A stretch of DNA of 64,000 nucleotides from an uncultured bacterium (GCA_964551475.1 CAZKCI010000064.1:19643-83642); one strand, 5' to 3'; shown: positions 1,808 through 57,272, numbered from the stretch's first letter. The notes: generated from the sequence alone by a model not told the origin. Numbers and translations are program-made.

Positions 1808-2787
1808 AGGCGCTCCTGGAGGTGAGGGATCTGCGCGTGGTCTTCCCGGCCGAAGCGGGCGTGGTCCGGGCGGTAGACGGCGTTTCCTTCTCGCTGGGCG
1901 AAGGGGAGACGCTCGGCCTGGTGGGGGAGTCGGGCTGCGGCAAGACGATGACGGCGCTCTCGCTCCTGCGCCTGATCCCGAGTCCGGGAACGCTGGCCGG
2001 GGGAGAAATCATCCTCAATGGGCGCGACCTCCGGTCGCTCACCGAGGGCGAGATGAGGCGGATCCGCGGGGAGAAGATAGCCATGATCTTCCAGGAGCCG
2101 ATGACCTCCCTGAACCCGGTCTTCACCGTCGGGGAACAGATCGAGGAGACCATCCGCGCCCACGAGCGGGCCGGCCGGGCGGAGGTCCGGGAGCGGGCCC
2201 TGCGGCTTCTGAGGGAAGTCAACATCCCGGACCCCGCCGCCCGTTTCCACGCCTACCCGCACCAGCTCTCCGGGGGCATGCGGCAGCGGGTGATGATCGC
2301 GATCGCCCTCTCCTGCCGCCCCCGCCTCCTGATCGCCGACGAGCCGACCACCGCCCTCGACGTCACGGTCCAGGCGCAGATCCTGAGACTGCTCGGACGG
2401 CTGGGGAAAGAGCACGGGATGGCCCTCCTCCTGGTGACCCACGATCTCGGCGTGGTGGCCCGGGAGACCGACCGGGTGGCGGTGATGTACCTGGGACGGA
2501 TCGTCGAGACCGCGTCCACGTCCGCCCTTTTCGCCCGCCCGCTCCATCCCTATACCGCCGCCCTGATGCGGTCGATCCCGCGCCTGGGAGAGACCCGGCG
2601 CAGGCTCCCCGCGATCCCGGGGAACGTGCCCGATCCCCGGGAGCGCCCGACCGGCTGCTCCTTCCATCCGCGCTGCCCGCTCGCCGAAGCGGTCTGCCGG
2701 GTCGAGGACCCGGCTTTGCTCGAGCTGTTGCCCGGCCATTCGGCCGCCTGCCATGTCGCCCGCAGACACGTGCGCGATCGGACCTGA
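1804..2787 (+). CDS. ABC transporter ATP-binding protein, OppD/DppD family
   Basis: ATG at 1804 ([14 protein letters not shown]). Walker A GESGCGKT, signature LSGGMRQR and Walker [13 protein letters not shown] are present. The C-terminal oligopeptide/dipeptide ABC extension has Cys residues. Confidence 0.85.
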
Positions 2788-2799
2788 GGAGGCCCGATA

Positions 2800-3212
2800 A
2801 CGGAAGGTAAATAGGCTAGGGTTAGGTGAATGGTTTGGTCATTGGGCAAGGGTTAGGTGCGGCCGGGTTCCACCGTTTACCTCACCTATTGACCAGACCA
2901 ATAACCTTGCCCTAACCCATTGACCGATTGGTTGACGGGTTAGGGTAAGGAAGTGGGTCTGGTAAATGGGTTAGGGTCAAGTGCGGCCTGGAGAACCGCC
3001 GGCCGGGCTGCACCATTGACCTTACCCATCGACCAGACCAATAACCTTGCCCTAACCCATTGACCGATTGGTTGACGGGTTAGGGTAAGGAAGTGGGTCT
3101 GGTAAATGGGTTAGGGTCAAGTGCGGCCTGGAGAACCGCCAGCCAGGCTGCACCATCGACCTTACCCATCGACCAGACCAATATCCTAACCCTAACCCAT
3201 CAACCCCATCCG
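2800..3212 (+). repeat. Three tandem copies of a ~125-bp MITE-like element with terminal inverted repeats (GGGTTAGGGTAAGGAAGTGGGTCTGGTAAATGGGTTAGGG … CCTTACCCATCGACCAGACCAATAACCTTGCCCTAACCC), joined by GATTGGTTGAC linkers
   Basis: Two near-identical ~150-bp direct repeats (approx 2893-3050 and 3043-3190), each carrying internal inverted arms, plus a more diverged copy at 2805-2935. The same element recurs at 6 other intergenic loci in the window. Confidence 0.8.
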
Positions 3213-3223
3213 CACCGCAACAA

Positions 3224-4213
3224 ATGAAGGAACAATCTCAAGATATTCTTCTGCAAGTCCGCGACCTCCGGAAGAGCTTCCCCCTTCGCCGGGGGCTCTT
3301 CTCCCGCCCGGCGGGGTCCGTCCGGGCGGTGGACGGGGTGAGCTTCGAGATCCCCCGCGGGACCACGCTCGGCCTGGTCGGCGAGACCGGCTGCGGGAAG
3401 ACCACGCTCGGCCGCCTCATCCTCCGTCTCCTCCCCGCCGACGGGGGAGAGGTTTTCTTCCGGGGCTTGAACGTGCTCGCCCTTCCCCCCGCCCGGCTGC
3501 GGGAGCTGCGCCAGGAGATGCAGATCGTTTTCCAGGATCCTTTCGGATCGCTGAACCCCCGGATGAGAGTCGGCGCGATCGTGGGGGAGGGGCTCCGAAT
3601 CTTTCGGCGGGGGACCGGACGGGAGATCGAGACGGAGACGGCCCGCCTCCTGGAGCGGGTGGGCCTCAACGCCTCCGCGGCGAAACTCTATCCCCACGAG
3701 TTTTCGGGCGGCCAGCGCCAGCGGATCGGGATCGCCCGGGCGATCGCGCTCCGGCCCGCGTTCATCGTCTGCGACGAGCCGGTCTCTTCGCTGGACGTCT
3801 CCATCCAGGCCCAGATCCTGAACCTTCTCGCCGACTTGCAGGAGGAGATGGGGCTCGCCTATCTCTTCATCGCCCATGATCTCCGCGTGGTCGAGCACAT
3901 CTCCCATCGGGTGGCGGTGATGTACCGGGGGCGGCTCATGGAGACGGCGAAACGGGAGGATCTTTACGCCGATCCCCGCCACCCCTACACCCGTCTCCTT
4001 CTGGATTCCATCCCCGATCTCGATCCCGCCGCCCCCCGCCGCGATCCGCCCGCCGTTGCGCCCGAAGAGGCGGCTGGCGACGGCTGCCCGTTCTTCCCGC
4101 GCTGCGGGGAGAGGAGCGAGGAATGCGGTACGGTAGTTCCGGAGCTTCAGGAGATTTTTCCCGGGCATCAGGTGGCGTGTATAAGGCAGGGAAGGCTGAA
4201 GACCGAAGGCTGA
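3224..4213 (+). CDS. ABC transporter ATP-binding protein, OppF/DppF family
   Basis: Walker A GETGCGKT, signature FSGGQRQR, Walker B FIVCDEPVSSLD and a C-terminal Cys-containing extension (CPFFPRC). Confidence 0.85.
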   Translation: MKEQSQDILLQVRDLRKSFPLRRGLFSRPAGSVRAVDGVSFEIPRGTTLGLVGETGCGKTTLGRLILRLLPADGGEVFFRGLNVLALPPARLRELRQEMQIVFQDPFGSLNPRMRVGAIVGEGLRIFRRGTGREIETETARLLERVGLNASAAKLYPHEFSGGQRQRIGIARAIALRPAFIVCDEPVSSLDVSIQAQILNLLADLQEEMGLAYLFIAHDLRVVEHISHRVAVMYRGRLMETAKREDLYADPRHPYTRLLLDSIPDLDPAAPRRDPPAVAPEEAAGDGCPFFPRCGERSEECGTVVPELQEIFPGHQVACIRQGRLKTEG

Positions 4214-4370
4214 AGGCTGAAGGCCGAAGACTGAAGGCTGAAGGCTGAAGGAAAAACCGCCTGAACCCTGAACCCTGAACCCTGAACCCTGAACCCTGAA
4301 CCCTGAACCCTGAACCCCGTAGCCAGCCACTTGACAATTGATAAATGACCAATGACGAATGACCAATGAT
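4189..4370. repeat. Three consecutive short tandem arrays: (GCTGAAGG)x~7 overlapping the oppF 3' end, (CCTGAAC)x8, and (AATGACC)x3
   Basis: Read directly: …gaaggctgaagaccgaaggctgaaggctgaaggccgaagactgaaggctgaaggctgaagg…cctgaaccctgaaccctgaaccctgaaccctgaaccctgaaccctgaacccc…aatgaccaatgacgaatgaccaatga. A TTGACA hexamer sits at ~4331. Confidence 0.85.
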
Positions 4371-6208: not shown

Positions 6209-6290
6209 GCCGGGATGGTGGAACTGGCAGACACATACGTTTGAGGGGCGTATGGGGTAACCCGTGCGGGTTCGACTCCCGCTCCCGGCA
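6209..6290 (+). tRNA. tRNA-Leu (anticodon GAG), type II with long variable arm
   Basis: Acceptor stem GCCGGGA/TCCCGGC with discriminator A. Anticodon stem tacgt/gcgta has the loop TTGAGGG, giving anticodon GAG. The variable arm tggggtaacccgtgc is long. The T-arm is GCGGG-TTCGACT-CCCGC. No encoded CCA. Confidence 0.8.
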
Positions 6291-10266: not shown

Positions 10267-10398
10267 TGGGTAAGGGTGAGGAAGTGGGTCTGGTCAATGG
10301 GTTGGGGTTAAGTGCAGCCCGGCGAATCGCAAGACAGGCCAGACCATTAACCTTACCCATCTTCCAGACCAATAACCTCACCCTTACCTATTGACCAT
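10267..10398 (+). repeat. MITE-like palindromic element, single copy, beginning 1 bp after the upstream stop codon
   Basis: tGGGTAAGGGTGAGGAAGTGGGTCTGGTCAATGGGTTGGGGTTAAGTGCAGCCC…AGACCATTAACCTTACCCATCTTCCAGACCAATAACCTCACCCTTACC. The arms are reverse-complementary. Confidence 0.8.
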
Positions 10399-10407
10399 CG
10401 GTTAACA

Positions 10408-10776: not shown

Positions 10777-10780
10777 AACG

Positions 10781-11020
10781 ATTGGTCAATGGGTTAGGGT
10801 TAGGAAGTGGGTCTGGTGGATGGGTTAGGGCAAGGTGTCGCCAAGCCAGGTTGCACCATTAACTTTACCCATATACCAGACCAATATCCTTACCCTTACC
10901 CATTAACCGATTGGGTGACGGGTTAGGGTTAGGTCAACGGTTTGGTCCTTGGGCTGGGGTTAGGTCGGTTGCACCATTGACCTTGCCCATTTACCGGACC
11001 AATAACCTTGCCCTGATCCA
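10781..11020 (+). repeat. Two tandem MITE-like elements between the receiver and histidine kinase genes
   Basis: Copy 1 ~10785-10908 (GGGTTAGGGTTAGGAAGTGGGTCTGGTGGATGGGTTAGGG…TACCAGACCAATATCCTTACCCTTACCC). The linker is gattgggtgac. Copy 2 ~10920-11020. Confidence 0.8.
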
Positions 11021-13805: not shown

Positions 13806-14040
13806 AGAAAATGGGTTAGGGTTAGGAAGTGGGTCTGGTAAATGGGTTAGGGTTAAGTGCGGCCTGACAAAACCGCCAGCCGGGCTACACCATTGACCGA
13901 TTGGTTAATGGGTTGTTGATGGGTTGGGGTTAGGAAGTGGGTCTGGTAAATGGGTTAGGGCAAGGTGTCGCCAAGCCAGGCTGCACCATTAACTTTACCC
14001 ATTTACCAGACCAATATCCTTACCCTTACCCATTGACTAG
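13806..14040 (+). repeat. MITE-like elements (one truncated copy plus one full copy) directly after the HEAT-lipoprotein stop
   Basis: aTGGGTTAGGGTTAGGAAGTGGGTCTGGTAAATGGGTTAGGGTTAAGTGCGGCC…; second copy …GGGTTGGGGTTAGGAAGTGGGTCTGGTAAATGGGTTAGGGCAAGG…TTTACCCATTTACCAGACCAATATCCTTACCCTTACCC. Confidence 0.8.
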
Positions 14041-14055
14041 TTATTGAGAGTGATC

Positions 14056-21051: not shown

Positions 21052-21215
21052 AAACATTGGAGTACTGGAGTATTGGAGTAGTGGAGTGATGATAATCATG
21101 GAGTATTGGAGTAGTGGAGTGATGGAGTAATGGGGCAGACTGCCGTGCGGCTTTTTTCCAATACTCCAATACTCCATCACTCCATTACTCCATTGCTCCA
21201 TCACTCCAGTACTCA
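21052..21215 (+). repeat. Large inverted repeat built from 8-mer tandem units (GGAGTANT)x~9 … (ANTACTCC)x~7, with an embedded intrinsic-terminator-like centre (GGCAGACTGCC gtgcggc TTTTTT)
   Basis: Left arm ~21058-21132, centre 21133-21157, right arm 21158-21214. The arms are reverse complements at unit level. Confidence 0.85.
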
Positions 21216-25857: not shown

Positions 25858-25915
25858 TAAACCAAGAACCGCAAAAAGTGAACCGTGAACCGTGGAACCG
25901 TGAACCGTTGAACCA
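25858..25915 (+). repeat. Tandem 9-mers (GTGAACCGT-like)x~5 immediately after the prfB stop
   Basis: …aaccaagaaccgcaaaaagtgaaccgtgaaccgtggaaccgtgaaccgttgaaccaggttgg… This is the TGAACC repeat family. Confidence 0.75.
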
Positions 25916-25941: not shown

Positions 25942-26214
25942 ATGACTATCTATGTCGGCAATCTGCCCCGCGATATCAGCGAGGAGGAAGTCCGCCAGGC
26001 TTTCGCCGCATTCGGCGAAGTGACCGTGGTCCGCATGATCAAGGACAAAGTTACCGGCGAGGCGCGCGGCTTCGGCTTTGTGGAGATGCCCAACGCCGAG
26101 GAAGGCGCTTCCGCCGTCCGGGCGATGAACGGCAAGGAGCTCAAGGGCCGCACGCTGAACGTCAACGAGGCCCACGCCAAGCCCGAGGGCGGAAGAGGCC
26201 CGAGAAGAGAGTAG
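25942..26214 (+). CDS. RNA-binding protein with a single RRM domain
   Basis: RNP-2 IYVGNL and RNP-1 RGFGFVEM, with a Gly/Arg-rich tail. The ATG at 25942 lies inside track ORF 25918..26214. Confidence 0.85.
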   Translation: MTIYVGNLPRDISEEEVRQAFAAFGEVTVVRMIKDKVTGEARGFGFVEMPNAEEGASAVRAMNGKELKGRTLNVNEAHAKPEGGRGPRRE

Positions 26215-26220
26215 GCAGGT

Positions 26221-26288
26221 AAGGGTTAGGAAGTGGGTTTGGTCTATGGGTTACCAGACCCACTTCCTAACCCTGACCCATCGACCAG
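26221..26288 (+). repeat. Minimal MITE-like hairpin (20-bp arms GGTTAGGAAGTGGGTTTGGT / ACCAGACCCACTTCCTAACC) filling the RRM-lysS intergenic gap
   Basis: Near-perfect inverted repeat with a 9-nt loop. It has the same arm sequence as the larger elements and ends 6 bp before the lysS ATG. Confidence 0.8.
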
Positions 26289-29040: not shown

Positions 29041-29045
29041 AAGAG

Positions 29046-29275
29046 TCAATGGGTTAGGGTTAGGAAGTGGGTCTGGTAAATAGGTTGGGGTTAGGTGTGT
29101 CATGGCAAAACGACTGACGGGCTACACCATTGACCGATTGGTTGACGGGTTAGGGTTAGGAAGTGGGTCTGGTAAATGGGTTGGGGTTAGGTGTGTCATG
29201 GCAAAACGACTGACGGGCTACACCATCTACCTTACCCATCGACCAAACCCACTTCCTTACCCTCACCCATTAACC
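29046..29275 (+). repeat. MITE-like elements (two copies, first lacking a right arm) between lolC/E and lolD
   Basis: …caatGGGTTAGGGTTAGGAAGTGGGTCTGGTAAATAGGTTGGGGTTAGGTGTG…; the second copy ends …ATCTACCTTACCCATCGACCAAACCCACTTCCTTACCCTCACCC. The internal spurious ORFs (MAKRLTGYTI…) are repeat-encoded. Confidence 0.8.
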
Positions 29276-29285
29276 CTGTTTGACT

Positions 29286-30972: not shown

Positions 30973-31245
30973 CGGGTTAGGGTTAGGAAGTGGGTCTGGT
31001 AAATGGGTTAGGGTTAAGTGCGGCATGGCGAAACCGCCAGCCGTGCCACACCATCTACCTTACCCATCGACCAAACCCACTTCCTTACCCTCACCCATTG
31101 ACCGATTGGTTGACGGGTTAGGGTTAGGAAGTGGGTCTGGTAAATGGGTTAGGGTTAAGTTCGGCATGGCAAAACGGCTGACGGGCTACACCATTAACCT
31201 TACCCATTTACCAGACCATTATCCTGACCTTTACCTATAGACCAT
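30962..31245 (+). repeat. Two tandem MITE-like elements between ilvE and mcsA; the element/linker supplies the ilvE stop codon
   Basis: ctgattggtTGAcGGGTTAGGGTTAGGAAGTGGGTCTGGTAAATGGGTTAGGGTTAAGTGCGGC…ATCTACCTTACCCATCGACCAAACCCACTTCCTTACCCTCACCC cattgaccgattggttgac GGGTTAGGG… (second copy). Confidence 0.85.
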
Positions 31246-31249
31246 CTTT

Positions 31250-32962: not shown

Positions 32963-35458
32963 GTGTTCGACCAATTCACTCCCCGCGCCCGCCAGGTGAT
33001 CATCCTGGCCCGCAAGGAAGCCGACCGCTTCAACCACGACTATATCGGCACCGAGCACATTCTCCTCGGCCTGCTCCGCCTGGGCCAGGGGGTGGCGGTG
33101 GACATCCTCCGCGAGCTGGGCGTGGATTTCCAGACCCTGCGGATGGAGGTGGAGCGAGCGGTCGGGACCGGTCCCGAGACCAAGACGGCGGGCGAGGTCC
33201 CTCTCACACCCAAGGCCCGCCGCGCCATCGACCTCGCCGTCGCCGAGGCCAAGAAGCTTCAGCACAGCTACATCGGCACCGAGCATCTCCTGCTGGGGCT
33301 TCTCCAGGAGGGGGAGGGTGTCGCTTCCCAGGTGCTCAAGAACCTGGGGGTGGACCTGGAGGAGACCCGGGGGAGGATCCTGGAAAAGCTCAAGATGGAG
33401 TACGGCAGCCAGACCGGTCCGGAGGCGCCCCCGGCCGAGCCCCGGGACAAGCGCGCGGGCCGGACTCCGGCTTTAAAGGCCTTCGGCCGCGACCTGACGG
33501 AGCTCGCCCGGGAAGGGAAGCTTGACCCGGTGATCGGCCGGGACGCGGAAATCGAGCGGTTGACCCAGGTGGTCTGCCGGCGCTCGAAGAACAATCCGGT
33601 CCTGATCGGGGAAGCGGGGGTGGGCAAGACCGCGATCGTGGAGGGGCTGGCCCAGCGGATCGTCTCCGGCGACGTCCCCGAGATCCTCCGGGAGAAGAAG
33701 CTGATCACGCTCGACCTGGCCCTGATGGTGGCGGGGACGAAATACCGCGGCCAGTTCGAAGAGAGGATCAAGGCGATGATGGAGGAGATCAAGCGCTCCC
33801 GCAACGTCCTGCTTTTCATCGACGAGCTCCACACCATCGTGGGGGCGGGCGCGGCCGAGGGCGCCATCGACGCCTCCAACATCTTGAAGCCCGCCCTCTC
33901 CCGGGGAGAGCTCCAGTGCATCGGGGCCACCACGATGAACGAGTACCGCAAGTACATCGAGAAGGACGCGGCCCTGGAGCGTCGCTTCCAGGTGATCAAG
34001 GTCCGGCCCAACACGGTGGAGGAGACGATCGAGATCCTGAAGGGGCTCCGGAAGAAATACGAGCAGCACCACAACGCCTCCATCACCGACGGCGCGCTGA
34101 TCGCGGCCGCCCGCCTCTCCGACCGCTACCTCTCCGGCCGCTACCTCCCCGACAAGGCGATCGACCTGGTCGACGAGGCCTCCTCCCGCCGGCGCCTCGC
34201 GGTGATGACCCGCCCCGCCGAGATCAAGGGCCTGGAGAAGCGGCTGGAGGAGATCCAGAAGGAGAAGGAGAAGGCGGTCAAGGACCAGGATTTTGAAAAG
34301 GCGGCGGGGCTCCGCGACGAAGAGCGTTCCTCCCAGGAGAAGCTCCGGCGGGAGCTGGAAATCTGGAAGGAGACCAAGAGCAAGGAAAAGGTCACGGTGG
34401 ACGAGGAGGAGATCGCGGAGGTCCTCTCCCGCTGGACCGACATTCCGGTCTCCCGGATGGAAGAGACCGAGGCGGAAAAGCTTCTCAAGATGGAGACGGC
34501 CCTGCACACCCGGGTGGTCGGCCAGGAGGAGGCGATTTCGGTGATCTCGCGGGCCCTGCGGCGTTCGCGCTCGGGGCTCAAGGACCCCGGCCGTCCGATC
34601 GGATCCTTTATCTTCCTCGGCCCCACCGGCGTGGGCAAGACCCTGCTCGCCCGGGTGCTGGCCGAGTTCATGTTCGGCAACGAGGACGCCCTGATCCAGA
34701 TCGACATGTCCGAGTACATGGAGAAGTTCGCCGTCTCCCGCATGGTCGGCTCGCCGCCCGGCTATGTCGGTTTCGAAGAGGGGGGGCAGCTCACCGAGCG
34801 GGTGCGCCGCCGGCCCTACGCCGTGGTCCTCTTCGACGAGGTGGAGAAGGCCCACCCCGACGTGATGGGTATCCTCCTCCAGATCCTGGAGGACGGCAAG
34901 CTCACCGATTCCTGGGGGCGCCCGATCGATTTCCGCAACACGGTGGTGATCATGACCTCCAACGCCGGAGCGGAGCTTCTCCAGAAGGAGACCACGGTGG
35001 GCTTTTCCTCCGGATCGAAGATGGAGGAGTTCTCCGGGATGAAGGGCAAGCTGATGGCGGAGATGAAGAAGATCTTCAAGCCGGAGTTCCTGAACCGCCT
35101 CGACGACGTCATCGTCTTCCACCACCTGACCGGCGACGACCTGGAGCGGATCGCGGACCTCGAAATCCGGGACATCTCCGGCCGCCTCCGGGACCGTCGG
35201 ATCACGCTGGAGCTGACCAAGAAGGCCCGGGAGTTCGTGGTCAAGGACTGCGAGAAACAGCGGGCCGGCGCCCGCCCGCTGCGCCGGGCTCTCCAGCGCC
35301 TGGTGGAGGATCCTCTTTCCGAAGAGCTTCTCCGGTCCAAAATCCCGGAGGGCAGCCGGATCAAGGTGGACCTGAAGAAGGGGGCCATCGTCTTCATCTC
35401 CAGCAAAGAAGAGGGCGCCGCCGGCGCCCCGGCGGCGGCCGGAGACAAGGTCGGATGA
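32963..35458 (+). CDS. clpC: ATP-dependent Clp protease ATP-binding subunit ClpC
   Basis: Two Clp_N repeats. AAA1 has GEAGVGKT and DELH. The UVR motif lies in the linker. AAA2 has GPTGVGKT and the sensor-2 RPLRRALQ. Confidence 0.9.
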
Positions 35459-35535
35459 GTTCGATCGGCTCCCCGCCGTTCCCTCTCTCGCCTGCCCTGG
35501 ACGCAGTCGAACGGGTCTAGGGTGAGGGGGCATGG

Positions 35536-37398
35536 ATGCATGCTTGCCGGACAGCGTATCTTTCCATCCTTCTTCTCCCCCTGGTTTTCGCCCCGCTCGC
35601 CCGTTCCGAGATCCTGCTCGCCGTCCCCGACGACATCGCCGACGCCCTGCCCGAGGATATCCGGGATGACGCGGGGGAGACGGCGACCGTCTCCGGCGCC
35701 TTCCGCTCCTTCTCCCGCGACCGGCGCAACTTCGATCCCGCCTACCCCTGGGTGCTGGAGACGGAGGCCTGGACCGGTTTTCTCGATGATGAAGTCTCCC
35801 GCGCCGCGGGCCCGATCCTCGCCTCGATTTCGGCGGGGGACCAGCTCACGGCCTCGGGATCCTGGGGCGTTCTCCTTTCCGCCGCCGAGCCCCCCTGGCC
35901 CGGGTCGGTCGCGGTCGGCGATCGCCGGGCGCTGGCCGTTCTCGTCGTGACCTCGCTGGCGTCGCGACCCGTCCCGTCCGCCGGCGTCTCCTCCCCGCCC
36001 CGCCCCGATCTCGCGGCGGTCGCCCGGGCCGTGCAAGCCGAGGAGCTCAAGGCGGTTCGGGATCCCTCCTACGCCTCCCCCGCCCGCCGGAAGATCGCCC
36101 AGCTCTACGTGAAATCCGGGCAATACGAGAAGGCGATCAACGAATACCGTTTCGATATGATCCTCGACCCCGCCCGCTCCTCCTCTGGCCATCGCAAGAT
36201 CGCCGAGATCTACAAGCTGATGGGGGACGGGGAGAACGCCCGGATCGAGCTGGAGCTTTCCCGGCTCACCCAGAAGGAGAGCCGGGAATCGCTTTACCGC
36301 CAGCGCCTGACCAAGTGGATCAAGCAGGGAAAATACGAGCTGGCGATTCAGGAGTACAATTATCTTCTCCAGGCCGACAGCCGCTCCCGTCCCGAGTACC
36401 TGGAGAAGATCGCCCAGCTCTATAGCCTGCTGGGGGACCGGGCGCGGGCGCGCGACTACTACGGAAGGCTGATCCGGGAAATGCAGGAGACCGCGCGGCA
36501 GACCGCCGCCCAGCGGCTGGACAAGTCGCTCCGCCTGGCCGCGATCTACGAGGACATGGGCGACTTCGACGCCGCCCGCGCCCAGTACGAGAACGCCCTC
36601 CAGGCCTCGCCCGGCAAGAAGGAGGAGGTCCTGATCAAGACCGCCCAGTTCCTGGAGCGGAGGAAGGATTATCCCGGGGCCCTGGCCGTCTACCGGAGAA
36701 TGGAGGGGATGCCGGATGCGGACCGGGCGGGGCTCGCCGAGCGCAGCGCGCGGCTGATGGAGCGAAACAAGGACATCGGAGGAGCGATCGCGGAATACGA
36801 GCGGGCGGCGAAGTTCTCCCGCCCTCCGGACTCCTCCCGTATCCGCTGGAAACGCGCCGCTCTGCTCTCTTCGTCGGGCCGTCTGCAGGAAGCCCTGGCG
36901 GCCTATCGGGAAGCGGCCGGCGATCTCACGGGCGCGGCGCGGGCGGAGGCGGTGGAGGAAACGGGGGATCTCCTGGTCAAGCTCAAGAAGGAAGAGGAGG
37001 CGAGAGCGGCCTACCGCGAGGCGGGTTCCCTCCTCCTCGCCTCCCGGTCGACGGCCTCTGGCCGGGAAGACGTCGTCCGCCGGCTGGCGGATCTGGCGGA
37101 GAAAGCGGGCGATGCCGAAGTCGCCCGCCGCTATCGGGAGGAGACGGCGTCACTGCTCGCGGGCAAGATCCGCGACGATCCCGCCTCCAGTGTCCGGTCC
37201 CGCCGCCGACTGATCGATCTCCTGGAGAAGCTCGAAAAATGGGACGAGGCCGCCGCGCAGTACCAGGAATGGATCGCCCGGGAGCCGGACAACTCCTCGC
37301 CCTATTACCGCCTGTATCGCCTCTATCGCGATAAGCTGAAAAACGAGGAGCAAGCGAAGACGTGGGAGGAAAAGTACCAGGAGATGAAAAGGAAATAA
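35536..37398 (+). CDS. Secreted TPR-repeat protein (620 aa)
   Basis: Signal peptide MHACRTAYLSILLLPLVFAPLARSE followed by more than 10 TPR-like units (…AQLYVKSGQYEKAINEY…, …WIKQGKYELAIQEYNYLLQAD…). Confidence 0.6.
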   Translation: MHACRTAYLSILLLPLVFAPLARSEILLAVPDDIADALPEDIRDDAGETATVSGAFRSFSRDRRNFDPAYPWVLETEAWTGFLDDEVSRAAGPILASISAGDQLTASGSWGVLLSAAEPPWPGSVAVGDRRALAVLVVTSLASRPVPSAGVSSPPRPDLAAVARAVQAEELKAVRDPSYASPARRKIAQLYVKSGQYEKAINEYRFDMILDPARSSSGHRKIAEIYKLMGDGENARIELELSRLTQKESRESLYRQRLTKWIKQGKYELAIQEYNYLLQADSRSRPEYLEKIAQLYSLLGDRARARDYYGRLIREMQETARQTAAQRLDKSLRLAAIYEDMGDFDAARAQYENALQASPGKKEEVLIKTAQFLERRKDYPGALAVYRRMEGMPDADRAGLAERSARLMERNKDIGGAIAEYERAAKFSRPPDSSRIRWKRAALLSSSGRLQEALAAYREAAGDLTGAARAEAVEETGDLLVKLKKEEEARAAYREAGSLLLASRSTASGREDVVRRLADLAEKAGDAEVARRYREETASLLAGKIRDDPASSVRSRRRLIDLLEKLEKWDEAAAQYQEWIAREPDNSSPYYRLYRLYRDKLKNEEQAKTWEEKYQEMKRK

Positions 37399-37547
37399 GG
37401 TTCAACGGATCAAGGGTTCAGCGGTTCAGAGGTTCACGGTTCAACGGTTAGATAACACAACCGCTGAACCGCTGAACCGTGAACCGTTGAACCGTGAACC
37501 GCTGAACCGCTGAACCGTGAACCGCTGAACCGTTGAACCCTGAACCC
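37399..37547 (+). repeat. ~150-nt inverted repeat made of 8-9-mer microsatellite units: (GGTTCANNG)x6 - loop agataacacaa - (CNNTGAACC)x~11, followed by a T-rich tract
   Basis: It begins 1 bp after the TPR-gene stop and ends ~20 nt before the proS ATG. The arms were read directly. Confidence 0.85.
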
Positions 37548-37567
37548 TGTTTCCTTTTGGAGCACCC

Positions 37568-39271
37568 ATGCGCTGGACCAAGACACTGATCCCCACGCTG
37601 CGCGAAGCGCCGCAGGAAGCCGAGATCGCGAGCCACATCCTGATGATCCGGGCCGGGCTGATGCGGAAGCTCTCCTCCGGCCTCTACACCTTTCTCCCCC
37701 TGGGACTGAGGGCGCTCAGCAAGGTGGAGAGGATCGTCCGGGAGGAGATGGACCGGGCGGGGGCGCTGGAGATCCTGATGCCGATCCTGCAGCCCCGCGA
37801 GCTCTGGGAGAAGAGCGGCCGCTTCGGGATCATGGGCGAGATCATGCTCCGGGCCAAGTCGCGCTCCGGCCGCGAACTCGTCCTCGGCCCCACCCACGAG
37901 GAGGTGGTGACCGATCTCGTCGCCCACGAGATCGACTCCTACCGCGGGCTCCCCGTGAACCTCTACCAGATCGCCCCCAAGATCCGCGACGAGATCCGCC
38001 CCCGCTTCGGCCTCATCCGCTCAAGGGAGTTCATCATGAAGGACGGCTACTCCTTCGACCTCGACGACGCGGGGGCGGCGGAGTCTTACCAGAAGATGTA
38101 CGACGCCTACATCCGGATCTTCGCGCGCTGCGGTCTCCAGGTCCGGGTGGTCGAGGCCGACACCGGCGTGATGGGGGGAAACCTCTCCCACGAGTTCATG
38201 GTCCCGGCCGAGTCGGGCGAGGACTACCTCGCCTCCTGCGCGCAGTGCGGCTACGCCGCCAACACCGAGAAGGCGGCTCTCCGGCCCTCCCCCGACCGGC
38301 CCTCCCGGACGGCCGAGCCGATCGCCTCCGTCGACACGCCGAACTCCAGGACGGTGGAGGAGCTCGCCGCCTTCTTCCAGGCCGGCCCCGAGCGCTTCAT
38401 CAAGACGCTGATCTATGTCGCCGACGGGACGCCCGTCGCCGTCCTGGTCCGGGGGGACCGGGACGTGAACGAGGGGAAGCTCGCGCGCCTGCTCGGGGCG
38501 ACACAGACGGCCCTGGCCGACGAGAAGACGATCGAGAAGGCGACCGGCGCTCCGCTCGGCTTCGCCGGGCCGGTGGGGCTCGCGGGGATCCGGGTCGTCG
38601 CCGACTACAGCGTGGCGTCGATCGCCGACGGGATCACCGGGGCGAACCAGAAGGACAAGCACCTGGTCCATGTCAACCTCGAGCGCGATTGCGCGATCTC
38701 TGAGTTTCACGATCTCGCCGTGGCGGCGGCGGGCGACCTCTGCGGCCGCTGCGGCGCGCCTCTCTCGCTGAGCCGGGGCGTCGAGGTCGGCCACACCTTC
38801 AAGCTGGGGACGAAATACAGCCGGGCCCTGGGGGCCATGGTCAAGACCGAGAAGGGGGAGGAGATCCCGGCGGTGATGGGCTGCTACGGGATCGGCGTGA
38901 GCCGGGTGGTGGCGGCGATCGTCGAGCAGTCCCATGACGCCAAGGGGATCGTCTGGCCCGTCTCCGTCGCCCCCTACCAGGTCCTGGTCCAGGCTTTGAA
39001 CCAGGACGACGAGAAGATCGCCTCCGTCGCCTCCGCCCTCCACGACCGGCTGGAAGGGGAGGGGTGGGAGGTCCTCTACGACGACCGCCCGGTCTCAGCG
39101 GGCGTCAAGTTCAACGACGCCGACCTGGTCGGGATACCGCTCCGGATCACGATCGGGAGGAAGTTTCTGAAGACCGGCGAGCTGGAGCTGAAGCGGCGCG
39201 ACGCCCCCGCCGCCGTGGGTTGCCGTCCCGAGGACCTCACGGCGACGCTTAAAAAACTCCTGGCTGGCTAA
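37568..39271 (+). CDS. proS: Proline--tRNA ligase (class II, bacterial type with editing domain)
   Basis: MRWTKTLIPTLREAPQEAEIASHILMIRAGLMRKLSSGLYTFLPLG… canonical ProRS N-terminus. INS/editing domain and class II motif 3 are present. Confidence 0.9.
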   Translation: MRWTKTLIPTLREAPQEAEIASHILMIRAGLMRKLSSGLYTFLPLGLRALSKVERIVREEMDRAGALEILMPILQPRELWEKSGRFGIMGEIMLRAKSRSGRELVLGPTHEEVVTDLVAHEIDSYRGLPVNLYQIAPKIRDEIRPRFGLIRSREFIMKDGYSFDLDDAGAAESYQKMYDAYIRIFARCGLQVRVVEADTGVMGGNLSHEFMVPAESGEDYLASCAQCGYAANTEKAALRPSPDRPSRTAEPIASVDTPNSRTVEELAAFFQAGPERFIKTLIYVADGTPVAVLVRGDRDVNEGKLARLLGATQTALADEKTIEKATGAPLGFAGPVGLAGIRVVADYSVASIADGITGANQKDKHLVHVNLERDCAISEFHDLAVAAAGDLCGRCGAPLSLSRGVEVGHTFKLGTKYSRALGAMVKTEKGEEIPAVMGCYGIGVSRVVAAIVEQSHDAKGIVWPVSVAPYQVLVQALNQDDEKIASVASALHDRLEGEGWEVLYDDRPVSAGVKFNDADLVGIPLRITIGRKFLKTGELELKRRDAPAAVGCRPEDLTATLKKLLAG

Positions 39272-39295
39272 AAAAAAGCAACCGCGGATTGCGCG

Positions 39296-39315
39296 CCTGC
39301 CTGCCGGCAGGCAGG
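39296..39315 (+). terminator. Palindrome CCTGCCTGCC-GGCAGGCAGG after proS (hairpin; no clear U-tract)
   Basis: Perfect 10-bp inverted repeat, flanked by a CGCGGATT direct repeat. Confidence 0.3.
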
Positions 39316-39335
39316 GATTTCGCGGATTATAAAAG

Positions 39336-39360
39336 CCCTGAACCCTGAACCCTGAACCCC
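39336..39360 (+). repeat. (CCCTGAA)x3 heptamer array
   Basis: gccctgaaccctgaaccctgaacccc; the same unit as the 4261-4318 array. Confidence 0.7.
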
Positions 39361-39368
39361 GGACTTCA

Positions 39369-40172
39369 ATGAAATCCTCGTTGTTCAGCAAAGGTTCCAA
39401 GTTGTTCGTCGGCATGGTCCACCTCCTTCCTCTCCCCGGCAGCCCCGGTTACGGCGGCTCCTTCGAGGCGATCGTCACCCGGGCGCTCAAGGACGGGCTC
39501 GCCCTCCAGGAGGGGGGCGCGGACGCCGTCATCATGGAGAACTATGGCGACGTCCCCTTCTTCTCCGACTCCGTTCCGCCGGAGACGGTCGCGGCGATGG
39601 CGGTGATCGCGCGCGCCATCCGCGCCGAGGTCTCCCTGCCGATGGGGATCAACGTCCTCAGGAACGACGCCCGCTCGGCCCTGGCGGTGGCGCTGGCCGC
39701 GGGGGGGAACTTCATCCGGGTCAACGTCCACTCCGGGGCGATGGTGACCGACCAGGGGATCGTCCAGGGGAAGGCCGCCGAGACGATGCGCGCCCGGGTG
39801 TCACTCAAAGCGCCGGTCGCTGTCTGGGCCGACGTGATGGTCAAGCACTCGGCGCCTCTGGGCGACTACTCGATCGAGGGGGCGGCCAAGGACACCGCTT
39901 ACCGGGGGCTCGCCGACGCCCTGATCGTCTCCGGCGCCGGGACCGGCCAGGCGACCGAGCTCGCCAAGGTCAAACGGGTCCGCTCCGCCGTCCCCGACCT
40001 GCCGATCCTGATCGGATCGGGGACGACGCCGGAGAACCTCGCCGAGTTCCTCCCCTTCGTCGACGGATTCATCGTCGGGACCGCGCTCAAGGAGAAGGGG
40101 ATCACGGTGAATCCCGTCTCCCTCCCCCGGGTCAAGGCCTTCGCCCGGGCGCTCCGGCCCAAGTCTCGGTGA
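39369..40172 (+). CDS. BtpA/SgcQ-family TIM-barrel protein
   Basis: MKSSLFSKGSKLFVGMVHLLPLPGSPGY…AVIMENYGDVPF… closely matches the BtpA (PF03437) N-terminal signature. Confidence 0.7.
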   Translation: MKSSLFSKGSKLFVGMVHLLPLPGSPGYGGSFEAIVTRALKDGLALQEGGADAVIMENYGDVPFFSDSVPPETVAAMAVIARAIRAEVSLPMGINVLRNDARSALAVALAAGGNFIRVNVHSGAMVTDQGIVQGKAAETMRARVSLKAPVAVWADVMVKHSAPLGDYSIEGAAKDTAYRGLADALIVSGAGTGQATELAKVKRVRSAVPDLPILIGSGTTPENLAEFLPFVDGFIVGTALKEKGITVNPVSLPRVKAFARALRPKSR

Positions 40173-48861: not shown

Positions 48862-48997
48862 CGGGTTCAGCGGTTCACGGTTCAGCGGTTCAGCGGTTCA
48901 ACGGTTGGAAAAATAACCGTGAACCGCTGAACCGTGAACCGCTGAACCTCTGAACCTCTGAACCGTTGAACCGTGAACCGTTGAACCTTTGAACCCT
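48862..48997 (+). repeat. ~135-nt inverted repeat of 8-9-mer units: (GGTTCANCG)x5 - loop aaaaataa - (CNNTGAACC)x~9
   Basis: It starts 2 bp after the truB stop and ends ~18 nt before the ribF ATG. It has the same architecture as 37399-37547. Confidence 0.85.
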
Positions 48998-57064: not shown

Positions 57065-57272
57065 TGTGGGAGCGGCGTCCTCGCCGCGATCCATGACGGC
57101 TTGGCCTTTTTAACCGCGAATTCACGCGAATAAATCGCGAATAGCCCGGATACTGATCACTGATTACTGATCACTTCTTTTTCAGTTACTGTATTCCCTG
57201 TGGGAGCGGCGTTCCTGCCGCGATTCTGTCGTTTCTTGTTTTCTGTGGGAGCGGCTTCTCGCCGCGGTCGCC
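57065..57272 (+). repeat. Three copies of a 28-nt REP-like palindromic unit (YTGTGGGAGCGGCKTYCTCGCCGCGRTY) at irregular spacing
   Basis: Copies are at ~57065-57092, 57198-57226 and 57243-57272; each contains the small hairpin GCGGCG…CGCCGC. An (ACTGATY)x3 array and (CGCGAAT)x3 motifs lie between copies. Two more copies in inverted orientation are at 59726-59791. Confidence 0.75.

Follow-up and report, generated by a model that had tools for sequence, protein, structure and literature searches.

Between the gene for a TPR-repeat protein and proS, the gene for prolyl-tRNA synthetase, a 64,000-nucleotide stretch of DNA from an uncultured bacterium (hereafter the window) carries a long hairpin built of short tandem repeats, which raises the question of whether it is a regulatory device dedicated to proS or one copy of a more general element. 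The first-pass annotation leaned to the former, and saw in it a potentially tunable attenuator able to change its length through repeat slippage. Its description of a hairpin spanning the whole spacer is borne out by the sequence, by Tandem Repeats Finder (TRF) and by an RNA fold of -91.1 kcal/mol, while several details of the layout had to be corrected.

The upstream TPR-repeat gene (620 aa, 35536-37398, + strand; supported by the ORF list, Pfam TPR families and the GC3-based gene call) ends in a TAA at 37396-37398, and the first GGTTCA starts at 37399, abutting the stop codon with a gap of 0 and not of 1 bp as first described. The element (37399-37549, + strand) consists of a 5′ arm in which GGTTCA followed by 1-2 variable bases recurs ~6.5 times (37399-37449; TRF period 8, 6.5 copies, 77% matches), a central loop AGATAACAC (37450-37458, from sequence and fold) of 9 nt instead of the 11 nt reported, and a 3′ arm of ~11.5 units in which 1-2 variable bases precede TGAACC (37459-37549, as delimited by TRF and by alternative registers; TRF at 37459-37546, period 8, 11.5 copies, 89% matches), in agreement with the six and about 11 units counted before. 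The units are 7-mers mixed with 8-mers (GGTTCAC, GGTTCAGC, GGTTCAAC) and not 8-9-mers; the 3′ arm additionally has a higher-order 23-nt period (8+7+8, 3.8 copies) and is ~5 units longer than the 5′ arm, leaving the two strongly unequal. Head-to-tail units in the 5-11 nt range are thus present at above-chance copy number, in two close intergenic arrays that are complementary and convergent, between the TPR and proS ORFs. Downstream follow the T-tract TTTCCTTTT (37550-37558), complementary to AAAAGGAAA (37387-37395), a Shine-Dalgarno-like GGAG (37559-37562) located 5 nt before the start codon, and proS itself (567 aa, 37568-39271, + strand; Pfam tRNA-synt_2b, tRNA_edit and HGTP_anticodon, and homologues), whose ATG lies at 37568, 18 nt from the end of the element, close to the ~20 nt with a GGAG RBS given initially.

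Folded as RNA, the region 37390-37570 is as stable as had been anticipated (z = -11.2, with 0 of 200 shuffles equally stable), with a stem of 45-60 bp, and the opposite strand reaches -96.8 kcal/mol (z = -10.3), so that folding is about equally strong on the two strands. At least 4 pairing registers on the longer 3′ arm, with 89-97% complementarity, are open to the 5′ arm; the hairpin is therefore register-degenerate, and the MFE structure represents just 0.8% of the ensemble. The inverted repeat reaches outward to AAAAGGAAATAAGGTTCA / TGAACCCTGTTTCCTTTT (37387-37404 / 37541-37558), and therefore the last TPR codons (AAA AGG AAA TAA), which form the outer base of the palindrome, and the T-tract both belong to it. 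The MFE structure leaves ~10 unpaired nucleotides between the strong stem and the T-tract, which is itself interrupted by CC, and it also leaves the GGAG-N5-AUG of proS unpaired.

The unit count of the 3′ arm comes from one assembly, and two short-read (Logan) contigs with identical proS (L002 and L003) break within this arm, beginning at window positions 37510 and 37534 and matching its last 58 and 34 nt exactly. Repeat elements at both proS junctions fragment short-read assemblies of this organism, and the short length of the ribF contigs of relatives is likewise due to the breaking of short-read assemblies by repeat elements.

The hairpin is not specific to proS. A twin element in the truB–ribF spacer (48864-48995, + strand; from TRF, sequence and the Pfam families of the flanking genes) has 5.5 GGTTCAN units, a loop GGAAAAAT and 10.5 NTGAACC units, and folds at -77.9 kcal/mol (z = -9.5), and other repeat hairpins occupy other spacers, which argues against a structure dedicated to proS as initially conceived. 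The string GGTTCANNGGTTCA, with at most 1 mismatch, has 22 matches in the window against 0.23 expected, and these fall at three loci only. Single arms occur too, all on the + strand: GTGAACC x5 at 25878-25914, just upstream of a small gene at 25942-26214 (TRF and spacer sequence), (CCTGAAC)x8.3 with its TGAACC core at 4260-4317 (TRF), and (CCCTGAA)x3.4 at 39336-39359, 10 nt upstream of the btpA start (TRF and sequence). At 4191-4317, GAAGGCT x8.7 and then CCTGAAC x8.3 stand adjacent, perfect-looking and non-complementary, with no more fold stability than shuffled sequence (z = -0.4); the GAAGGCT array apparently runs into the end of the upstream ORF, whose stop codon is at 4211-4213. Among the spacers of 50-320 nt in the window, 9 of ~27 fold at z <= -5, and a TGGAGTAA x9 / TCCATTAC x7 hairpin directly 3′ of a secA-like gene (21058-21214) attains -76 kcal/mol (z = -9.6). 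Units of this last hairpin are also found in the proS-btpA spacer of relatives (L004:11696-11801; L005:3040-3130) and are absent from that of the window, and each of the three copies folds better, and with more G-U pairs, as sense than as antisense strand. By GC3-based calling essentially all genes of the 64 kb lie on the + strand; a cruder ORF-based caller had placed 10 of 36 window genes on the minus strand, where GC3 finds almost none, and thus mis-assigned strands.

The window forms part of a 242-kb metagenome contig (JGI 3300036982). Its ProS is closest to proteins of Candidatus Auribacterota, in the PVC group, and its relatives conserve the clpC-TPR-proS synteny. A GGTTCA/TGAACC element is found in the TPR-proS spacer of five lineages, the window included, and the spacer measures 169 nt in the window (1 assembly, plus the two contigs that break in the 3′ arm), 140 nt in the L004 type (identical in the 6 assemblies L004 and L006-L010, and partial in L011), 102 nt in the L012 type (identical in the 9 assemblies L012-L019 and L262), 101 nt in L263 (1 assembly) and 324 nt in L005 (1 assembly), where a second hairpin is nested in the loop. 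The element therefore keeps its site while varying in length and sequence, and the expected difference in repeat number between related lineages is confirmed. At the nucleotide level proS is 95-97% identical among the L004, L012 and L263 types, which share 88% with the window and ~81% with L005, and throughout these lineages the element still forms a long hairpin (z = -5.6 to -11). Where the length difference could be aligned, the indels separating the L004 and L012 types comprise whole units, the one in the 5′ arm measuring 7 nt and the one in the 3′ arm 31 nt. The arms of L012 and L263 carry substitutions without compensation, which, together with the equal folding of the two strands, leaves no signature of RNA-specific selection. 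The T-tract is absent in L263 and in the truB–ribF twin and weak in L004 and L012, and the GGAG of the window aligns to TGAGCA in the spacers of relatives.

The same comparison argues against rapid tuning driven by slippage, since 6-9 independent assemblies share each length variant without a difference, which points to change over evolutionary time and not to a fast switch. For a phase-variable repeat, unit number would vary within a population or among near-identical strains, and it is the same in the 6 assemblies of the L004 type and in the 9 of the L012 type, as judged from consensus assemblies, which would mask minority variants. A metagenome scan with the unspecific junction pattern AAAARGAAATAAGGTTCM returned 120 chance matches, 0 of them with arrays. 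Two outgroups (72% and 68% ProS identity) keep clpC-TPR-proS without the GGTTCA element; one has an extra gene at the TPR–proS junction, and the other has a 394-nt TPR-proS spacer (L265:2607-3000) that contains other repeats and a promoter-like site. In relatives, entirely different repeat families are found in the truB-ribF and proS-btpA spacers, which indicates turnover. As side observations, the L265 spacer holds an ACTGATY x3 heptamer array, the unit of which recurs at window 57152-57175, and a 50-nt perfect palindrome (CTGCTTCGGAATTTCAATAATCGGAT...) with a TGGACA-17-TATCAT promoter-like site, and genes for Pfam '23S rRNA intervening sequence protein' (PF05635) adjoin repeat-rich spacers at L005:3150-3776, L012:5592-6305 and L004:15970-16332.

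Regarding transcription, a consensus scan, which may not describe the promoters of this phylum, detected no sigma-70-like promoter in 35300-39500, and the nearest + strand promoter-like sites are at 30.0, 40.2 and 43.0 kb. The simplest reading is therefore that transcription runs through from the clpC-TPR genes, and it is plausible that proS would be co-transcribed through the hairpin. The first-pass annotation had allowed for either this or a promoter inside the element; the former finds support in the lack of a separate promoter-like site, while the scan shows none inside the element either. Both GGTTCA hairpins lie within co-oriented clusters, the second in the conserved truB-ribF-rpsO-pnp array. 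On the + strand of the spacer no canonical rho-independent terminator was detected by a scan that takes loops of 3-8 nt and at most 20 pairs, limits under which a hairpin with a 9-nt loop and more than 20 pairs could not be scored as a terminator. The short GC-rich stem and immediate U-run of such terminators are not what is found here, the stem being 45-60 bp and the tract interrupted and unconserved. The Rfam gathering scan of the whole window gave 0 matches, and it also missed the tRNA-Leu(GAG) that ARAGORN places at 6209-6290, so that the negative Rfam result rests mainly on a targeted E-value scan of 37300-37700, in which nothing but sub-threshold matches to eukaryotic miRNA precursors, i.e. 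generic long hairpins, appeared. T-box, riboswitch and leader readings were rejected for the absence of Rfam matches, a G-quadruplex because the units carry GG only, and CRISPR for units of 7-8 nt without unique spacers.

Beyond this clade, an exact-pattern scan for three TGAACC units, with one genome per species, returned at least 119 loci, and the matches listed include Desulfobacterales/Thermodesulfobacteriota, Acidobacteriota, Planctomycetota, Lentisphaeria, NC10, Elusimicrobia, cyanobacteria and others, as well as viral contigs (genome loci L020-L138; viral loci L267 onward). Where both arms fall within 300 nt of each other, the GGTTCA array precedes the TGAACC array in 26 of 27 genome pairs and 17 of 17 viral-contig pairs among the matches listed, that is, 43 of 44 in total. 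As this order reads the same on either strand, it is a property of the element itself and no effect of gene orientation. GGGTTCA versions also exist (on the opposite strand of 4260-4317, and in L021 and L024).

In other genomes a subset of the arrays belongs to complete MITE-like elements, with ends GTAA(G/C)CGTTCACAGGTTCA or GTAACTGCTCAGGTT (L046:4777-4986, L052:1993-2174, L069:3171-3382, L083:~1450-1674, and L032 with two right ends), hosted by NC10, Elusimicrobia and Thermodesulfobacteriota/Deltaproteobacteria. They combine IS66-type ends (GTAAGCG/GTAACCG...TTCACAGGTTCA), subterminal GGTTCA/TGAACC arrays and variable cores of 50-175 nt, and are flanked by 8-bp direct repeats matching at 8/8 positions in L046 and L032 and at 7/8 in L083 and L069; an inverted repeat starting GTAAGCG and an 8-bp direct repeat are the hallmarks of the IS66 family (PMC11946415). 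Within the clade of the window, the L005 spacer ends in GTGAACCTGATAACCTGAGCAGTCAC, the reverse complement of which agrees with the end of the Elusimicrobia element L052 at 23 of 24 positions, and the L004 and L012 spacers end in a degenerate version, TTGAGCATTTGAC. The window element has neither an IS66-type terminus (CTGAGNAGTNAC or a GTAAC end), which is present in L005, L046, L052, L069, L083 and L032, nor an 8-bp target duplication in its flanks (GGAAATAA / TTTCCTTT or AGGAGATG / GGAGCACC). The dispersal of copies and their presence or absence among relatives that are expected of a MITE are seen in the truB–ribF twin and in the outgroups without the element. A BLAST search of the L052 element against plasmids gave no match. 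We infer that the window element may descend from a MITE, an ancestry that rests, for a copy with no such end or duplication, on the L005 orthologue and on the identity of unit and polarity. A literature search for the GGTTCA/TGAACC unit strings returned no paper, and as far as the searched literature shows, fixed polarity and IS66-type ends have not been described for this unit.

Based on these observations, we propose, with a probability of roughly 0.55, that the TPR–proS hairpin is a copy of a dispersed palindromic repeat, anciently inserted and since altered by slippage, whose action would be generic and REP/BIME-like, and that it is not a dedicated, tunable attenuator of proS. The element would be two convergent arrays of a 7/8-nt unit, GGTTCA+N1-2 and then N1-2+TGAACC, such as in some genomes take up a subterminal position in complete MITE-like elements that have IS66-type termini and 8-bp target duplications. 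The ancestor shared by the clade could have received such an insertion between TPR and proS, after which the arrays would have gained and lost whole units via replication slippage or unequal exchange while the ends decayed. Transcribed within a putative clpC-TPR-proS-btpA message, it would be expected to fold as a 45-60-bp hairpin reaching from the TPR stop codon to 18 nt before the proS start, and this folding would place the TPR stop codon beside the proS RBS. That such an insertion folds away without covering the RBS may be the reason that junctions of this sort tolerate palindromic insertions. By analogy with REP/BIME, the likely effects would be generic, namely a barrier that protects the upstream message against 3′ exonucleases or, alternatively, a target for a double-strand-specific RNase, or a site at which RNA polymerase pauses or partly stops. 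However, selection for a specific function could be what has kept a hairpin in all five lineages while its sequence turned over, in which case 'generic or near-neutral' would be too weak a description. A bolder extension, speculative and unlikely in our estimate, would take the GGTTCA/TGAACC hairpins as expanded, subterminal transposase-binding repeats of undescribed cross-phylum IS66-type MITEs that viral contigs carry too, and the decayed Auribacterota copies as kept in the role of intercistronic RNA hairpins, with their slippage-set unit number fixing the expression ratio of flanking genes (clpC/TPR versus proS).

Several other explanations have to be weighed against this generic repeat. 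That the hairpin and the TTTCCTTTT tract partly stop transcription coming from clpC-TPR, with repeat number tuning the flow to proS, seems to us decidedly unlikely. A very stable stem followed by a T-rich tract in the window, the variation of unit number between lineages, the lack of a separate promoter-like site, and the clean T-runs that follow some GGTTCA hairpins of viral contigs (e.g. L309, L341) would all suit such an attenuator, but a dedicated terminator or attenuator role is less likely because the T-tract is interrupted, set apart from the strong stem in the MFE structure, and unconserved, since the L263, L004 and L012 orthologues and the twin have a weak one or none. The fixation of each length variant, the generic nature of an element that has no link to proS and folds equally on both strands, and the failure to match any Rfam T-box, riboswitch or leader speak against it as well. 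To the view that this is purely selfish or neutral DNA whose arrays fill permissive spacers and grow to the stop codon and the RBS with no selectable effect on expression, we give some credence, at well below even odds. It accommodates the different repeat families that related lineages have in the same spacer, the position of the arrays, which abut stop codons and halt ~20 nt short of starts, the uncompensated arm mutations of L012 and L263 with no folding advantage of the sense strand, and the non-folding arrays at 4191-4317, which indicate that hairpin formation is not obligatory. However, a 45-60-bp duplex in an mRNA is unlikely to be without consequence, judging from what is known of REP/BIME and of RNase III substrates, and a hairpin has been kept at this junction through ~18% proS nucleotide divergence.

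A function at the DNA level, as a protein-binding platform (for a relic transposase, a nucleoid protein or a regulator) or as a cruciform affecting replication or supercoiling, is very improbable. The polarity of 43 of 44 pairs among the matches listed is what oriented protein-binding sites would give, and the palindrome is equally good on both strands, yet a period of 7-8 bp would presumably turn successive sites to different faces of the helix, no protein emerged as a candidate, and, as several unrelated unit families behave alike in the window, each would need a protein of its own. Hardly credible, finally, is the suspicion, raised by the breaking of short-read contigs with identical proS in the 3′ arm, that the array or its length is an assembly artefact, since the broken contigs reproduce the end of the arm exactly and homologous elements have been assembled at the same junction of related lineages in more than 15 assemblies.

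The kind of element to which the TPR–proS hairpin belongs has already been described in other bacteria, and what is new here is the unit, the phylum and the inequality of the arms. Among described kinds, the nearest is that of Xanthomonas, where each genome has 70-75 pairs of convergent heptamer arrays (GGGAATC), placed between genes and closer to the ORF upstream (Rehm et al. 2015, PMC4692102). Two species share the intergenic sites of these pairs, with arrays that vary in length and sequence, and the repeats are transcribed, their function being unknown (PMC4692102); 'long simple sequence repeats' are given as the broader class (Mrazek et al. 2007, as cited in PMC4679880). The TPR–proS element resembles them in its tandem intergenic units of the 7-nt class, in the pairing of two convergent arrays that could fold into a stem-loop or cruciform, in its position near the end of the upstream ORF, and in being kept at the same site in related species with varied length. 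It differs in its GGTTCA+N1-2 units of mixed 7-mers and 8-mers, its Auribacterota-like PVC host and its arms of 6.5 versus 11.5 units; additionally, with GG only and no G3 tracts, it is not a quadruplex former as are the GGGAATC/GGGGAYT classes. Short units reiterated at many intergenic loci, patchy over distant phyla and with no evident mechanism of transfer, are also shared with the cyanobacterial STRR heptamer repeats (Mazel et al. 1990, cited in PMC4692102) and with the TAACTGA repeats of Beggiatoaceae and cyanobacteria, which are patchy over phyla and lie just upstream of start codons (MacGregor 2015, PMC4679880). For the spread of the latter 'no mechanism is evident', and 169 direct sets compare with one indirect set (PMC4679880). 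The single TGAACC arrays of the window at 4260-4317, 25878-25914 and 39336-39359, directly upstream of start codons, are alike in placement, whereas the TPR–proS element is an inverted pair and the STRR and TAACTGA arrays are almost always direct.

The REP/BIME elements of enterobacteria are dispersed intergenic palindromes in operons, transcribed with the flanking genes. They are reportedly generic mRNA stabilisers or partial terminators (Newbury et al. 1987; Espeli et al. 2001), and REPs are said to lie next to stop codons (Liang, Rudd and Deutscher 2015). A REP is a single ~35-nt palindrome of conserved sequence, mobilised by RAYT transposases. The TPR–proS element is likewise a dispersed intergenic palindrome within co-oriented genes, but its arms are tandem 7/8-mer arrays of 50-90 nt and not a single ~35-nt palindrome. 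MITEs with internal tandem repeats are known, as in the Porphyromonas gingivalis MITE with a minisatellite (PMC4596501), and the GGTTCA/TGAACC arrays that other phyla hold within GTAAGCG/GTAACCG ends and 8-bp duplications, together with the end kept by the L005 orthologue, resemble IS66-type MITEs, from which the window copy differs in having no terminal repeat or target duplication; no autonomous IS66 partner was identified. With terminators of the intrinsic type and leader attenuators at aminoacyl-tRNA synthetase genes (T-box etc.) the element shares a hairpin and T-rich tract directly upstream of such a gene, but its stem is 45-60 bp and not 5-15 bp, its T-tract is interrupted and unconserved, and there is neither a specifier/antiterminator architecture as in a T-box nor an Rfam match.

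If the hairpin does influence expression, essential housekeeping genes (proS and ribF-rpsO-pnp) would be insulated or coupled by structures derived from repeats, the strength of which drifts by whole-unit slippage. An uncultivated PVC-group phylum now joins the short list of lineages in which heptamer-class arrays colonise spacers, and the fixed polarity, together with the IS66-type ends and 8-bp duplications of some genomes, offers a lead on the route by which such arrays reach new loci and phyla, which is unknown according to the cited papers. In practice, GGTTCA/TGAACC elements break short-read assemblies at gene junctions.

Some further features of the window were noted in passing. Both L002 and L003 end at window 39320, in another palindromic repeat (GCGCGCCTGCCTGCCGGCAGGCAGG). 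GC skew is flat over 1-64000. At least 7 spacers of the window (2770-3223, 10267-10407, 10777-11020, 13850-14043, 26220-26245, 29041-29279 and 30973-31249) hold palindromes of another, unrelated family, ~140 bp long and built on GGGTTAGGG; their arms read GGGTTAGGGTTAGGAAGTGGGTCTGGTAAATGGGTTAGGG, telomere-like and G3-rich, with z down to -16, and the family also occurs at L139:975-1090 and fills the truB-ribF spacer in one relative.
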